From Nitrospira sp. (GTDB lineage: Bacteria; UBA9089; CG2-30-40-21; SBAY01): DNA of 13,398 nt. The notes beneath the pieces were generated by a model. It searched no databases. It saw nothing but the letters and a program-made list of their open reading frames with translations, and had not been told where the DNA came from. The stretch is taken from positions 1 to 13,398 of the forward strand of contig SBAY01000326.1 of NCBI GenBank assembly GCA_005239945.1. The letters are read 5' to 3'. Shown here piece after piece: positions 2,968 to 12,828 of the stretch. The position numbers were made by a program, and so were the translations under genes. Every line of letters starts with the position of its first letter. The stretch's first letter is position 1.

Positions 2968-3095
2968 TGGGACATATAGGTCTTCCTAAGAACCTATCCG
3001 AAAAATCAACGGATGCCTCAACTTGGTTTAGGGGAAAATGCCCTGAACAAGTTCGGGTTTCCAACTTTTCGGATAGGCTCTAAGTCCTATTCTAC
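2968..3095. repeat. Two inverted copies of a small palindromic unit (ATAGG-N-CCTAT followed by CCGAAAA) bracketing a 60-bp core in the SPFH-pckG intergenic region
   Basis: Plus strand 2968-3004 reads ATAGGTCTTCCTAAGAACCTATCCGAAAAA. Minus strand 3095-3066 reads ATAGGACTTAGAGCCTATCCGAAAAG. The outer 12-bp inverted repeat is CCTATCCGAAAA (2993-3004) against TTTTCGGATAGG (3067-3078). A direct repeat AGTCCTATTCTAC occurs twice at 3082-3110, overlapping the pckG stop. Confidence 0.55.
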
Positions 3096-6015: not shown

Positions 6016-8505
6016 ATGCAAACACGAATAGGGCCCTTTTTTATTCTTCTGGGCATAACACTCCTATTTTTTGTCAATGCCTTATCTTCTGATTGGACCT
6101 TTGGCTACGGTGATATCCATCGCTATTTTTACCCAATTCGCTATTTTACCGCCTCCTCAATGAAAGAGGGTTTTCTGCCGTTGTGGAATCCGTATCTGTT
6201 TGCCGGCATTCCTAACTTAGCTGCCTTACAACCGGCGGTATTTTATCCGATTTCCATCCTACCCTATTTGTTTCCATTTTTTTATGGAATAGAACTTTTT
6301 ATCATTGTGCACTTCTTTTTAGCCAGTTTATTTACCTACCTGTTAATGAGGCATTTTAAGGTAAGCCGAGCAGGCGCCTTAATTTCAGCACTCACCTATG
6401 GTTTTGGTGGATTTCTTCTATCCGTAGTTGATATGCTCACCACGCTAAGTGCGGCTACCTGGACGCCGCTTATCTTCTTATGCTATCTTAAGGCGTTGGG
6501 GTCAGACCTTGAATATAGTAAGGCGTTGGGGTCTAAGGCGTTGGGGTCAGACCTTGAATATAGAATTTGCACACAAACGCAAATTCTATATTCAAGGTCT
6601 GACCCCAATCTTGCCAATCTTGTCTTCACCGGGCTATTTTTGGGAATCCAGTTTTTAGCCGGTGAACCCACCCAACTGTATGGCACTTTAATTACCTTGT
6701 CGCTATATACGGTGGCAAAGGCCTGGCAAATGTGGCGGCAAAAAGGGGAAAAGGAAAAAGTGACAAAAGCAAAACTGGTTAAGTTCTGCTTTCAAGGTTT
6801 GACCCCATGGCTTATTTGTTTAGGACTAACCCTTTTTCAGGTATTGCCTTTTTTGGAAATGGTTTTGCACTCAACCAGAACATCAGGGCTTAAATTCACC
6901 CATGCGACAAGCCTGTCATTGGGTCCACATGAATTACTAAACTTAGTCTTACCTTACTGGAGCGGTAATTTTATTGAAAAAAGTCATTTCTGGTTTGGAC
7001 AATCATGGTTAGAGAGTATCTACCTGGGGATTTTGCCCTTATTATTTGCCCTGGTAGCCATTGTTTTTGGACGGAAAAAAAGGATAGTGCTGTTTTTTAC
7101 CGGCATAATCTTTATTTTCTTGTTGCTTTCCTTTGGTAAGCTACTCCCCCTGTACAAGACACTTTATCAATATTTACCCGGCTTTAGCATGATTAGATAC
7201 CCGGTCAAATTCTTCTCGTTTGTTGTCCTGGGCATTAGTGTCCTGGCTGGCTTTGGGTTGGATAGGTTAGACGGCTCGGTCAAGTCAAACAAGTCTAACC
7301 TGTCCGACAAAATCTTAAAATTATTCTCTGGTTTTCTCTTGATTTATGCCGGTAGTTTTCTGGTCTTTTTTCTGAATCAACAACGGATTATTCCCTTTTT
7401 AAAGGAGATTTATTTCCCAGAAGCTCTGGATATTTATGTAGCGGCCTGGGCAGATAGTTTGTCAGGAAATTTTATGCTCGTTTGTCTGATTACCCTGGCC
7501 GGTATTCTGCTTATTTCTTTATTATTTAAGGGAAAAATCTCAACAAGGGTATTTAATCTGGGAATAATAGGCCTGGTGATTATAGACTTATTCATCTTTG
7601 GTATGAGAATCAATCCGCTTGTTCCGCAGAAAATTTATGCCTACAAGTCCCCTGCTTTAAGGTTTTTGTTACAGGATACCGATTGTTACCGCATCTTGTT
7701 AGAGCCAAAATCCGAGAGATATTTTCGAATCATCCGTGGCGAGACATTGGAAGATGCCCTGGTTGGTGTCCAGAATTCATTGGTCTCCAATTACGGGCTT
7801 TTTTATAAAATTTTTGATGCCCAGGGGTATGAATCCCTGACCTTAAACGATTACACCCGATTTTTAAAGCTGGTTACGGAACAGGGCGACTGGAATTTGT
7901 TGGATGTATTGAATATTAAATATGTGGTCTCTAAATTTGACTTGAAAATGAGGCAGTTAAAGTTAGTCTATGAGGATGAGTCAATTAAGATATACTGGAA
8001 TACTACCTGTTTGCCAAGGGCATTCTTTGTCCCAAAGGCAAGGGTAATCAGGGATAGACAAAGGGTATTGGAGGAGATGTCAGGTGTAGATTTTGACCCG
8101 CGAAAAGAAATAATTCTGGAAGAAAAAATTCGAAATCCAAATAAATTTTCGATTTTCGATTTTCGATTTTCGATTTCTTCAATCCAAAATCCAAAATCCA
8201 AAATCCAAAATCCTCGAATAATAGATTACCAGCCGAATAAAGTCATCATCACCGCTTCCTCGCCTGGTGCTTGCCTTTTATTCCTGAGCGACACCTATTA
8301 TCCTGGCTGGCGGGCTTTTATAGACGGTAAGCCGACAAAGATATATCGAGCAAACTATACCTTTAGAGCCATTAGTTTTCCTGAGGGTAGTCATACGGTA
8401 GAATTCGTTTATCTGCCTTTGAGTTTCTTAGTCGGAGTTATTGGGAGTGGGATAACGGTGTTTATATCGATAGGATTAATTTTAATGTGGAGGAAGAGAG
8501 GTTAA
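6016..8505 (+). CDS. YfhO-family polytopic membrane protein (putative glycosyl/lipid transferase)
   Basis: 829 aa. The N-terminal region (WTFGYGDIHRYFYPIRYF, LPLWNPYLFAGIPNLA, LLMRHFKVSRAGALISALTYGFGGFLL) matches the conserved YfhO N-terminus. It has many TM helices and a large C-terminal soluble domain. The ATG at 6016 directly abuts the TAG of the K+ channel gene (gtTAGATGcaa), indicating translational coupling. Confidence 0.7.
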   Translation: MQTRIGPFFILLGITLLFFVNALSSDWTFGYGDIHRYFYPIRYFTASSMKEGFLPLWNPYLFAGIPNLAALQPAVFYPISILPYLFPFFYGIELFIIVHFFLASLFTYLLMRHFKVSRAGALISALTYGFGGFLLSVVDMLTTLSAATWTPLIFLCYLKALGSDLEYSKALGSKALGSDLEYRICTQTQILYSRSDPNLANLVFTGLFLGIQFLAGEPTQLYGTLITLSLYTVAKAWQMWRQKGEKEKVTKAKLVKFCFQGLTPWLICLGLTLFQVLPFLEMVLHSTRTSGLKFTHATSLSLGPHELLNLVLPYWSGNFIEKSHFWFGQSWLESIYLGILPLLFALVAIVFGRKKRIVLFFTGIIFIFLLLSFGKLLPLYKTLYQYLPGFSMIRYPVKFFSFVVLGISVLAGFGLDRLDGSVKSNKSNLSDKILKLFSGFLLIYAGSFLVFFLNQQRIIPFLKEIYFPEALDIYVAAWADSLSGNFMLVCLITLAGILLISLLFKGKISTRVFNLGIIGLVIIDLFIFGMRINPLVPQKIYAYKSPALRFLLQDTDCYRILLEPKSERYFRIIRGETLEDALVGVQNSLVSNYGLFYKIFDAQGYESLTLNDYTRFLKLVTEQGDWNLLDVLNIKYVVSKFDLKMRQLKLVYEDESIKIYWNTTCLPRAFFVPKARVIRDRQRVLEEMSGVDFDPRKEIILEEKIRNPNKFSIFDFRFSISSIQNPKSKIQNPRIIDYQPNKVIITASSPGACLLFLSDTYYPGWRAFIDGKPTKIYRANYTFRAISFPEGSHTVEFVYLPLSFLVGVIGSGITVFISIGLILMWRKRG
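6490..6606. repeat. In-frame MITE-like palindromic element inside yfhO: direct repeats AAGGCGTTGGGGTC(AGACCTTGAATATAG) at 6490, 6520 and 6535, then a perfect 28-bp inverted repeat GGGGTCAGACCTTGAATATAGAATTTGC / GCAAATTCTATATTCAAGGTCTGACCCC with loop ACACAAAC
   Basis: Read directly from the sequence. The arms are at 6543-6570 and 6579-6606 with the loop at 6571-6578. The element is about 117 bp, a multiple of 3. It is open in the yfhO frame, where it encodes KALGSDLEYSKALGSKALGSDLEYRICTQTQILYSRSDPN. It is also open in two other frames, as shown by track ORFs 6449..6658 (+) and 6483..6686 (-). Confidence 0.8.
8146..8209. repeat. Two adjacent heptanucleotide tandem tracts inside yfhO: (TTTTCGA)x4 then (TCCAAAA)x4
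   Basis: 8146-8173 is TTTTCGA repeated four times. The spacer is TTTCTTCAA. 8182-8209 is TCCAAAA repeated four times. Both lie in frame in yfhO and encode FSIFDFRFSISSIQNPKSKIQNPRII. A related TTCGAAATCC sits upstream at 8129. Confidence 0.8.
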
Positions 8506-10535: not shown

Positions 10536-10760
10536 CTTCAATTCAGACATTAGATTTCAGGCTTTAGACATCAGACTTTTCGGTTCTTGCGGGTTTTTTG
10601 TGGAAGTGAATGATTGTAGAAACCAAAAATAATTCAATGTCCAATGTCCAATTAGCAATTAGCATTTTAAAATTATTTCTTTCATTGATGATTACTACTG
10701 CACATTTTTCTTCTCTTAGTCTAAATGTCTGATGTCTATGGTCTAATGTCTGAATTGAAG
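10536..10760. repeat. About 225-bp element filling the recF-larB intergenic region, bounded by inverted heptamer-repeat arms (about 41 nt, TCAGACA/TTAGACA-type units) with internal (AATGTCC)x2 and (AATTAGC)x2 tandems
   Basis: The left arm is CTTCAATTCAGACATTAGATTTCAGGCTTTAGACATCAGAC (10536-10576). The right arm is GTCTAAATGTCTGATGTCTATGGTCTAATGTCTGAATTGAAG (10719-10760). Its reverse complement matches the left arm except for a 7-nt indel. No target-site duplication is evident. Confidence 0.6.
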
Positions 10761-11533: not shown

Positions 11534-11552
11534 AATTTTTCCTTACTTGTAA

Positions 11553-11685
11553 CGGTTCAAGGTTCAAAGTTCAAGGTTCAAGGTTTTAGGATAGTAGCTA
11601 ATGAGTAGTGGGTAGCCAGGAAAATAGTTTTCCACAACCCATAACCCATCCTTGATTTTTCATTATTACCCTGAACCTTGAACCC
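11553..11685. repeat. Inverted heptamer arrays in the larB 5' leader: (GGTTCAA)x4-5 at 11553-11590 and the inverted copy CCCTGAACCTTGAACCC at 11669-11685
   Basis: Read directly from the sequence. The two arrays are reverse complements about 80 bp apart and can form a long hairpin. A small palindrome GGAAAATAGTTTTCC lies between them. Confidence 0.65.
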
Positions 11686-11694
11686 TTTCCAACT

Positions 11695-12290: not shown

Positions 12291-12749
12291 ATGAAGAGAC
12301 AATTTGAAATTGTTCCTGTAGAAGGAAGTAAAGATTTAGTTGAAATTACCTTCAAGGAAGGTTTTAAATTCCAGGTGGATAAGAAAAATAAACTCTTTGT
12401 GAAATTTGTGATGATATTGTTGCACTACGCTGGTGGTGCGGCTACCTATTTTGCTCCTCTTTTAGGATTTACCGACCGTGCCTTCCACAATATAAAAGAA
12501 TATTTCAAGGAATCCGGGATTAAATCATTCTATCACGGAAATCATTACAGACAGAATGCCCGTAAAATAATGGATGAAGATATCGGCAGGATATTAACCT
12601 TGATTGTGCAACATCCGACAGAATCTAATCGAGTGATTGCAGATAGGTTTAATGAACAAAGAGATATTAAGATAAGTTTTAGAAGTGTAGAAAGACTGCG
12701 AAATCAATATAAACTATTGAAAAAGAAGAAAAGCAAAAAAATAAAGTAA
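12291..12749 (+). CDS. Hypothetical protein with a C-terminal helix-turn-helix-like segment (transposase/resolvase-type HTH?) and a Lys-rich tail
   Basis: 152 aa from the ATG at 12291, which has RBS AGGAGGAG. The track start at 12255 lies inside the upstream small ORF in another frame and lacks an RBS. The C-terminal segment DIGRILTLIVQHPTESNRVIADRFNEQRDIKISFRSVERLRNQY has an HTH-like pattern. The N-terminal 90 aa has no motif I recognise. Confidence 0.55.
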   Translation: MKRQFEIVPVEGSKDLVEITFKEGFKFQVDKKNKLFVKFVMILLHYAGGAATYFAPLLGFTDRAFHNIKEYFKESGIKSFYHGNHYRQNARKIMDEDIGRILTLIVQHPTESNRVIADRFNEQRDIKISFRSVERLRNQYKLLKKKKSKKIK

Positions 12750-12750
12750 G

Positions 12751-12828
12751 CGGTAATCAGGTAATCAGGTAATCGGTAATCAGGTAATCGGGTAATCGGG
12801 TAATGTAGGAGACCGCTCACCGATTACC
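12751..12828. repeat. (A/G)GGTAATC hepta/octamer tandem array of about 7 units followed by its inverted copy CGATTACC; intergenic hairpin between the 152-aa ORF and the downstream HTH-TPR gene
   Basis: 12751-12804 reads CGGTAATCAGGTAATCAGGTAATCGGTAATCAGGTAATCGGGTAATCGGGTAAT. The loop is GTAGGAGACCGCTCAC. CGATTACC at 12821-12828 is the reverse complement of GGTAATCG. No U-tract follows, so it is not a classic terminator. Confidence 0.7.

Follow-up and report, generated by a model that had tools for sequence, protein, structure and literature searches.

A hairpin inserted in frame in yfhO of an uncultivated Nitrospira sp. and its likeness to the terminal repeats of Y1 transposase units

How does a long, perfect palindrome come to lie within the coding sequence of a conserved membrane protein without breaking it? 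This question is raised by a 13,398-nucleotide (nt) contig of Nitrospira sp. (SBAY01000326.1, assembly GCA_005239945.1; its whole length is referred to here as the window), in which the gene yfhO carries a hairpin with 30-nt arms bordered by short direct repeats. In our judgment the hairpin is very probably a non-autonomous "dimer" of terminal inverted repeats (TIRs) belonging to a transposon unit of the TIRYT/TIRtron kind, inserted in yfhO, inherited, and later subject to reiteration of its junctions. The features on which the argument turns are as follows.

6016-8505, plus strand: host gene yfhO; 829 amino acids (aa), frame intact; product a polytopic membrane protein of the YfhO family, GT-C glycosyltransferase fold
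6489-6548, plus strand: left-junction reiterations in the order A-B-A-A, followed by the true junction (A is TAAGGCGTTGGGGTC, B is AGACCTTGAATATAG)
6541-6570, no strand assigned: left arm TTGGGGTCAGACCTTGAATATAGAATTTGC, a perfect 30-nt inverted repeat corresponding to one TIRYT/TIRtron TIR
6571-6578, no strand assigned: loop ACACAAAC, 8 nt; CC only in the closest ortholog (contig L001)
6579-6608, no strand assigned: right arm GCAAATTCTATATTCAAGGTCTGACCCCAA, with one half of a compensated pair change (TTCTATA here, TTCCATA in L001)
6605-6622, plus strand: right-junction tandem duplication, two copies of CCAATCTTG (Tandem Repeats Finder: period 9, 2.0 copies, 100% matches)
6781-6806, plus strand: putative decayed right half of an older family element at a second site, AAGTTCTGCTTTCAAGGTTTGACCCC, encoding KFCFQGLTP at the start of a helix

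Structure of the palindrome and its place in YfhO

The core palindrome spans positions 6541 to 6608 (68 nt, 30+8+30), and its arms are 100% complementary. A preliminary description, made from the sequence alone, had recognized the perfect repeat and the 8-nt loop but placed the arms at 28 bp. Both arms open with GGGGTCAG, in agreement with GGGGWSAS, the consensus published for TIRYT ends, and the self-complementarity of a single arm extends no further than GGTCAGACC. None of 200 dinucleotide shuffles reached three matches to either motif, the direct or the inverted repeat. Folding, which the preliminary description had proposed as a check, gave a strong hairpin both for the repeat stretch as RNA (-70.9 kcal/mol, z = -9.4) and for the core palindrome as single-stranded DNA (-34.8 kcal/mol, z = -14). 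No run of T follows the stem, which the terminator search did not call, and nothing among the terminator and promoter features of the element rose above shuffle expectation. At the gathering threshold, no Rfam family matched anywhere in the window. An intrinsic terminator or a known structured RNA was accordingly rejected, there being no U-tract after the stem and no Rfam match. A full-text literature search with the arm sequence returned unrelated primer matches only. Perfect RNA duplexes inside coding regions may slow ribosomes or be cleaved by RNase III, and the 30-bp perfect RNA stem in the yfhO mRNA could have either effect.

The hairpin lies inside the plus-strand open reading frame (ORF) 6016-8505 without breaking the frame, and two further frames are open across it, one on the plus strand (6449-6655) and one on the minus strand (6486-6791), all as originally described. 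The remaining frame on either strand is stopped by TGA, TAA, or TAG. Both the window copy and the L001 copy are translated in one of the two open frames, as LGSDLEY..YSRSDP, and the repeat-bearing stretch of the window protein covers residues 158 to 198.

The host protein matches the Pfam family YfhO (1.4e-17), and a homolog search recovered 430 relatives at E<=1e-10. Its AlphaFold model is confident overall (mean predicted local distance difference test score [pLDDT], 91.5; predicted template modeling score, 0.93) and has a GT-C glycosyltransferase fold, with Foldseek matches to AftD, ArnT, AglB, and AftA. Within this model, residues 161 to 198 form a coil with a pLDDT of 46 to 63, enclosed by helices 150-160 and 199-214, both with a pLDDT above 95. 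Since a low-pLDDT coil sits between confident helices, the hairpin-encoded segment is predicted to be a tolerated, disordered loop.

Elsewhere in yfhO, two perfect in-frame heptamer arrays, (ATTTTCG)x4.6 and (AATCCAA)x4.7, occupy positions 8145 to 8213 and encode FSIFDFRFSI..IQNPKSKIQNP, where the AlphaFold pLDDT is 53 to 59. The same linker holds variable IRNSKF/IQNPKS-type repeats in YfhO orthologs.

We aligned 80 YfhO sequences, including the window protein (P0001) and its closest ortholog (P0002), and measured the loop between the conserved residues P151 and T205. It is 22 aa long in 56 of the 80 sequences and 37 aa in P0002; no aligned sequence exceeds the window protein, with 55 aa. Compared with the modal ortholog, the window protein has gained a net 33 residues, fewer than the roughly 39 proposed at first. 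The element is absent from 78 of the 80 sequences, as expected of an insertion, and the closest ortholog alone shares a version at the same site. That ortholog comes from a Nitrospirota-labeled metagenome-assembled genome (MAG), GCA_043816605.1, on contig L001; it is 84% identical to the window gene at the amino acid level and 83.6% at the nucleotide level, and the two contigs have the gene order Band_7-PEPCK-TrkA channel-YfhO in common.

Transposase units and gene-less relatives

The likeness that identifies the hairpin is to the ends of a transposon. We scanned one genome per species with GGGGTCAGACCTTNAATAT, requiring exact 19-mers. The species-level scan found 34 arm-motif loci, where we estimate that chance alone would give about 17, and matched several MAGs repeatedly. 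At least 80 metagenome loci carried the single-arm pattern, in an incomplete census that favors exact 19-mers. The gapped pattern for the whole hairpin matched 0 stretches in the metagenomes, and none of the 4 matches in a scan of viral contigs had extended family sequence.

The window arm is identical at 28 of 30 positions to the 3′ TIR of locus L013. A gene of 324 aa with the Pfam domains Y1_Tnp (3e-14) and Bac_DnaA_C (8e-8) lies between inverted copies of the motif in L013 and L036, and its stop codon is a TGA inside the 3′ repeat. Both ends are present around the transposase in L013 (191-1237), L036, L040 (the whole 1056-nt contig), L055, and L082, whose proteins are only partly alike (phmmer scores from 726 down to 240 bits). 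Transposases abut the motif in many contexts among the fetched loci, and more distant TIRYT homologs in L118 (39% identity), L119, and L120 have recognizably the same ends, for example GGGGTCAAAGCTTGAATAGTGAAT. The contigs L040, L118, and L119 consist of the unit alone, at 1048 to 1058 nt (stand-alone contigs range from 1045 to 1058 nt), and many other transposase relatives lie on unit-length contigs, as multi-copy insertion sequences (ISs) assemble. Among the candidates scored, 6,999 relatives of the transposase were found at E<=1e-20; source names were sparse among the top 120, which were searched for a Nitrospirota label. The family enzyme scores 2e-19 (69.9 bits) against the NCBIfam model REP_Tyr_transpos, for which the cut-off is 80 bits, and some relatives bear the JGI product name "RayT." One Firestonebacteria MAG (JBDRBU01) has both a TIRYT gene (L120) and a short repeat (L004). 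In L061 (1971-2030), L055 (3203-3262), and L119 (1-75), a promoter-like TTGAC(A/T)-17 nt-TATAAT sequence follows the 5′ repeat, just upstream of the transposase start.

Genes resembling REP-associated tyrosine transposases (RAYTs; REP, repetitive extragenic palindromic sequence) but with long TIRs were termed TIRYTs or TIRtrons by Di Nocera, De Gregorio & Rocco (2013; PMC3733652). Their paper gives the repeat consensus GGGGWSAS, describes dispersed families of singles, dimers, and groups, and presents mobilization of the repeats by the TIRYT enzyme as a hypothesis. The consensus also appears in Quentin et al. (2018; PMC6006769), which places most TIRYTs in Y1 subclass 2.1 and takes a Bac_DnaA_C-like C-terminal domain as the mark of subgroup 2.1.2. 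Our family resembles TIRtrons in its Y1 HUH transposase homologous to RAYTs, with a C-terminal Bac_DnaA_C-like helix-turn-helix (HTH) domain; in its long TIRs starting with GGGGWSAS; in the overlap of the 3′ end of the gene with the repeat; and in the dispersal of its repeats as singles, dimers, and groups.

Besides solo ends, inverted end pairs delimit 28 distinct gene-less elements of 41 to 428 nt in many phyla. The paired ends form a size series of 41, 46 to 48, 55 to 58, 64, 71 to 103, 169, 220, 268, 428, and 1047 nt. No consistent target-site duplication was found at 33 elements and units, which fits Y1/HUH elements and not miniature inverted-repeat transposable elements (MITEs) of the DDE type; a classical DDE-type MITE was rejected on this ground. 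The preliminary description had called the element MITE-like, and this holds for a dispersed, mobile-type palindrome but not for its derivation, the arms being equivalent to the ends of a Y1 TIRYT unit. Left flanks mostly end in T (position -1 is T in 60% of ends), and right flanks start with A.

Coding and intergenic copies were distinguished by a spanning ORF of at least 40 codons on each side, in MAGs whose binning and palindrome assembly are imperfect. Only five short elements are spanned by long ORFs, and these come from the window, L001, and a further MAG, MAG210 (JBFMDD01); about 23 short elements from other phyla have no spanning long ORF. The family had been taken to be lineage-specific, but it is present in Planctomycetota, Desantisbacteria, Firestonebacteria, and others: it is the intragenic habit, not the family itself, that is lineage-restricted. 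Intragenic copies of the window lineage always use one of the two stop-free frames. In MAG210, the source of the YfhO ortholog P0006, three proteins contain the translated hairpin in the form (W/R)GQTLNIEF..KF(N/H)IQGLTP, namely, YfhO at another loop (L031), a PMT_2 glycosyltransferase (L005), and a GldG-like membrane protein (L015), so that copies elsewhere also stay in frame, a point on which the preliminary description had asked for evidence. In an alignment with 20 orthologs, the GldG-like protein is 13 aa longer exactly at the hairpin. A half element lies inside a MAG210 methyltransferase gene (L024). In Scalindua rubra, a 169-nt element (L037, 5210-5378) provides the C terminus (..MGSDLEY) and the stop codon of a GT9 heptosyltransferase and is read in the same frame as the window and L001 copies, while in a Firestonebacteria MAG a solo end (L004, 5346-5364) lies in a cbiM-like leader, between the ribosome-binding region and upstream sequence.

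Junction reiterations and the origin of the insert

The direct repeats beside the hairpin have a different origin from its arms. As the preliminary description stated, TAAGGCGTTGGGGTC occurs in three exact copies, at 6489, 6519, and 6534; in addition, positions 6489 to 6518 are an exact 30-nt duplicate of 6534 to 6563. Each 15-nt unit consists of T AAG GCG TTG (10 nt of host K-A-L codons) followed by GGGTC, the element tip (its first 5 to 6 nt), and the host part, TAAGGCGTTG, is present in the empty-site orthologs L003 and L002. Because the units combine host codons with the tip of the element, the direct repeats lie outside the transposing unit. Of the mobile element of about 117 bp first proposed, the mobile-type hairpin therefore stands, but the mobile unit is about 58 to 68 nt long. 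The left reiterations add 45 nt, or 15 codons, in frame. On the right, comparison with the L001 junction indicates that the CCAATCTTG unit joins the last 4 nt of the palindrome to 5 nt of host sequence, again in frame. Both the 45-nt and the 9-nt reiterations are specific to the window and without independent support.

Similar reiterations recur across the family. Tandem duplication of adjacent flank plus repeat tip (units of 11 to 23 nt, at most 1 mismatch) was found at 10 of 124 family ends, all distinct, whereas 50,000 control positions drawn at random from these loci gave 99 such duplications (0.2%); the idea that the three direct repeats were an unrelated slippage accident was dropped in view of these ends. 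The break point falls 5 to 8 nt into the repeat in 8 of the 10 reiterated ends, among which are ends of full-length units (L013, L036, and L048). No microhomology that would explain the reiterations was seen at the junctions. Two ideas may be offered: either the Y1 enzyme nicks and rejoins the DNA at GGGGTC(A)^, or replication forks stall where the hairpin begins.

Reiterated ends such as GTAATGGGGTCAT followed by GTAATGGGGTCAGACC were observed in L013 (150-190), L036 (about 7690-7730), L028, L048, L033, L094, L020, and L021. At independent family ends the reiterated part is the flank plus the first 6 to 7 nt of the terminal repeat.

We asked when the hairpin entered yfhO. The empty site, as in L003, reads GCC TTA ACT TAC AAA CCT AAT (K-A-L-T-Y-K-P-N). 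The L001 element is shorter than that of the window, a 30+2+30 palindrome with one mismatch, and its junctions are identical: TTG/GGG on the left and CCC/AAY on the right in both copies. The T-Y-K codons are missing from both copies alike, and the inner arm variant GAATTTGC occurs in these two and in no other family copy. Because the window and L001 share this variant and the T-Y-K loss, one ancestral insertion common to both is the economical reading. The insertion had been supposed recent, and it is not, since an ortholog with 84% amino acid identity holds the element at the identical site. Identity between the two yfhO genes is 86%, 93%, and 72% at codon positions 1, 2, and 3 (71.6% at third positions), a pattern that points to purifying selection on yfhO having continued with the insert present.

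A second site in the same gene adds depth to this history. The sequence at 6781-6806 is identical to the family right arm at 20 of 26 positions, and its L001 counterpart matches at 21 of 26 and has left-arm traces as well. In the MAG210 ortholog an intact 58-nt hairpin (L031, 4399-4456) occupies this site 2 loop and is read in the same frame (WGQTLNIEFRSKFNIQGLTP). Because the decayed sequence occupies the loop of the intact MAG210 hairpin, yfhO has three layers: the decayed element at site 2 is old, the intact one at site 1 is younger, and the reiterations at both site 1 junctions are specific to the window. Local template switching was rejected as the source of the 20/26 similarity, given the intact MAG210 element in that loop. 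Among distant YfhO orthologs, P0018, P0048, and P0051 also have low-complexity inserts of other kinds in these two loops (site 1 and site 2); the inserts, e.g., SGVRNQESGVRS and GQGVRC, look like translated GGGGTC-type or other repeats.

In the scenario we consider best supported, the parent was an IS-like unit of about 1.05 kb whose gene product, a tyrosine transposase of the Y1 HUH type, has a DnaA-C-like HTH domain, and the inserted derivative consisted of two of its TIRs, each of about 28 to 30 nt, joined with almost nothing between them. This TIR dimer would have entered the short, permissive loop that joins helices 150-160 and 199-214, replacing about three host codons, in an ancestor shared by the window organism and GCA_043816605.1. 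Two circumstances would have let the insert survive: the net length change was divisible by three, and two of the repeat's three frames are stop-free. Later, in the window lineage, reiteration of both junctions would have added 45 nt at the left one and 9 nt at the right one, bringing the loop to 33 residues above the modal length. By analogy with the TnpA of IS200/IS605 and with REP/RAYT systems, we infer movement as single-stranded DNA, in which the paired repeats form a hairpin that a TIRYT enzyme, acting in trans, recognizes and nicks near its base. The recurrent break points of the reiterations suggest a nick about 5 to 8 nt into the repeat, GGGGTC(A)^, and no target duplication would be made. 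The present-day effects would be a disordered, hydrophilic protein loop and a 30-bp mRNA stem.

Several points weigh against this scenario. To our knowledge, no experiment has yet shown a TIRYT enzyme transposing a TIR dimer. The evidence from the host is one whole 13.4-kb contig, whose MAG is outside the scanned genome set, the TIRYT units all come from other genomes, and the MAG of L001 yielded a single locus in the species-level scan. About 9 nt of host sequence were lost at the insertion site, so that the event was not a clean addition of an element, and the nick position is drawn solely from the break points of duplications. Finally, the arms of the window and L001 copies are identical at 57 of 60 positions, set against a gene average of 83.6% and 72% at synonymous sites, a degree of conservation not expected of a dead element decaying neutrally.

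This last point leads to the rival that survives best, that the hairpin has been exapted or is actively maintained, either for a cis effect on yfhO expression (a pause between two transmembrane helices, or a site for RNase III or another nuclease) or as a live TIRYT substrate. Besides the arm identity, the window and L001 differ by a compensated pair change (TATAGAA/TTCTATA versus TATGGAA/TTCCATA), the window stem is still perfect over 30 bp, and the decay of the older copy at site 2 indicates that palindromes are not automatically kept in yfhO. On the other hand, the comparison has little statistical weight, with only two orthologous copies; ordinary parts of yfhO include 60-nt stretches that are equally conserved (95 to 97%); the variable position is polymorphic across the family, and gene conversion or intrastrand correction of the palindrome would give the same pattern; and the hairpin has neither a terminator-like tail nor an Rfam match. 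We consider this explanation unlikely. Because only two orthologous copies are at hand, arm conservation is a hint of stem maintenance, whether by selection, conversion, or self-correction of the palindrome. More broadly, the notion that the hairpin is no dead passenger, being either a selected cis structure in the yfhO mRNA or DNA or still processed by a resident TIRYT enzyme, is doubtful but may be entertained as a speculation. If true, it would account for a 30-bp perfect stem lasting through about 16% gene divergence. Were TIRYT processing involved, the flank-plus-GGGGTC(A) reiterations would be footprints of nicking and rejoining 5 to 8 nt inside the repeat and would offer a first sequence-level handle on the cut site of TIRYT enzymes and their manner of cutting.

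Two independent insertions, in the window and in L001, at a single hot-spot nucleotide seem to us quite improbable. The loop is a hot spot, since P0004 bears an unrelated, repeat-derived insert of 31 aa there and several distant orthologs have others; recency would account for the high identity of the arms; and the family prefers T-rich flanks, as the T at position -1 illustrates. However, that preference is far too weak to specify one site, and independent events would not be expected to have in common the same junctions, the same loss of the TYK codons, and an inner arm variant seen in no other copy. Least credible of all is a local origin, by de novo template switching from nearby gene sequence, or an assembly chimera, suggested by the 20/26 identity of the right arm to a sequence 200 nt downstream (6781-6806) and by the standing of palindromes as classic assembly and amplification artifacts but refuted for the core element by the same insert in the independent assembly L001, the loci in other genomes, and the 28/30 identity of the arms to transposon ends in unrelated phyla, with the reading frame preserved and the downstream similarity better explained by a decayed second element, of which MAG210 has the intact hairpin.

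Other repeats, known systems, and meaning

The window holds further repeats. The intergenic sequence between Band_7 and PEPCK at 2998-3072 (CCGAAAAATCAACGGATGCCTCAACTTGG...GAACAAGTTCGGGTTTCCAACTTTTCGG) represents a second repeat family, made up of small palindromes, and is about 88% identical over some 75 nt to the in-frame insert of 31 aa in P0004 (L002, about 2830-2915). The P0004 insert lies in the same site 1 loop as the hairpin; therefore, two different repeat families have invaded this loop. A terminator-like hairpin, AGTCAGACAAGTC-10 nt-GACTTGTCTGACT, follows the aminotransferase gene at 2085-2121 and is matched over 25 of 27 nt at 7282-7308 within yfhO, with an inverted partial copy at 7257-7272. 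In this part of yfhO (7257-7308) the protein is divergent and 4 aa longer, with GLDRLDGSVKSNKSNLSDK in place of the GYDYLIPNIKEKGDK of P0002, and this may be a third intragenic repeat. The intergenic regions 10536-10760, 11551-11687, and 12746-12804 are full of short-period arrays, some arranged as inverted pairs: (TTCAGACTTTAGAC)n facing (ATGTCTG)n, (GGTTCAA)x4.6 facing (ACCCTGA / TGAACC)n, and (GGTAATCA)x6.8. The genome appears to be rich in heptamer and octamer repeats.

How does the hairpin compare with known invaders of genes? Rickettsia palindromic elements (RPEs; Ogata et al., 2000; summarized in PMC3733652) are reportedly palindromes inserted in frame in functional genes. Like RPEs, the hairpin is inserted in frame in conserved, apparently functional genes, adds surface or loop peptides, has several stop-free frames, and is long tolerated. 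We know of no dedicated transposase for RPEs, whereas the hairpin has a candidate in the Y1 enzyme. RPEs have no sequence similarity to the hairpin, and their hosts are obligate intracellular alphaproteobacteria. The short RPE-4 and RPE-6 repeats have a CGTC tag at one end (PMC3733652), and neither CGTC nor GACG occurs in the 68-nt element. RPEs are either 100 to 150 bp long (RPE-1 type) or CGTC-tagged; the hairpin is 58 to 68 nt with GGGG/CCCC ends and is not of the RPE sequence type. The resemblance to RPEs drawn in the preliminary description thus extends to in-frame, multi-frame-open behavior but not to sequence.

REP sequences and the REPIN-RAYT systems are also short palindromes, presumably mobilized as single-stranded hairpins; the gene of the Y1 HUH enzyme believed to move them lies between inverted copies of the repeat, and intragenic REPs are known in some species. 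REPs are defined by a GTAG tetranucleotide tag and by units that are each an imperfect palindrome of 20 to 40 nt. Neither GTAG nor CTAC is present in the hairpin element, and its arm is not itself a REP-type palindrome. The family enzyme, which scores below the NCBIfam cut-off (69.9 versus 80 bits), may further differ from RAYTs; it has an extra HTH domain, and TIRYT units, many of them found as unit-length contigs, behave as multi-copy IS elements. Classical bacterial MITEs (such as Correia/NEMIS, ERIC, and Nezha) are similarly non-autonomous, being deletion derivatives of a parent element reduced to its terminal inverted repeats, form RNA hairpins, and lie in or near genes; however, they are DDE-derived and make target-site duplications, whereas the hairpin has none and its parent enzyme is a Y1 HUH transposase.

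Overall, the hairpin has the testable features of TIRtron-derived TIR repeats, and the kind of element and the kind of behavior are both known. In the portions of the TIRtron literature used here, published TIR families are moderately abundant, extragenic, and from cultured bacteria (Stenotrophomonas and Koribacter), and three features found in this study are not mentioned for TIRtrons there: in-frame TIR dimers of 58 to 68 nt, repeated invasion of one gene, and reiteration of flank plus tip.

These results tie an anonymous, protein-invading palindrome of an uncultivated lineage to a concrete class of transposons, the Y1 TIRYT units, which are very abundant in environmental bacteria and almost unstudied. 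They show that minimal derivatives of 58 to 68 nt can act like the RPEs of Rickettsia, adding stable extra loops to polytopic membrane enzymes and doing so repeatedly in the same gene. Inserts of this kind matter for annotation as well, since they lengthen loops and give rise to low-complexity segments in proteins from MAGs. The biology of mobile DNA gains two directly testable leads, namely, the perfect stem with its conservation and the recurring reiteration of flank plus tip.

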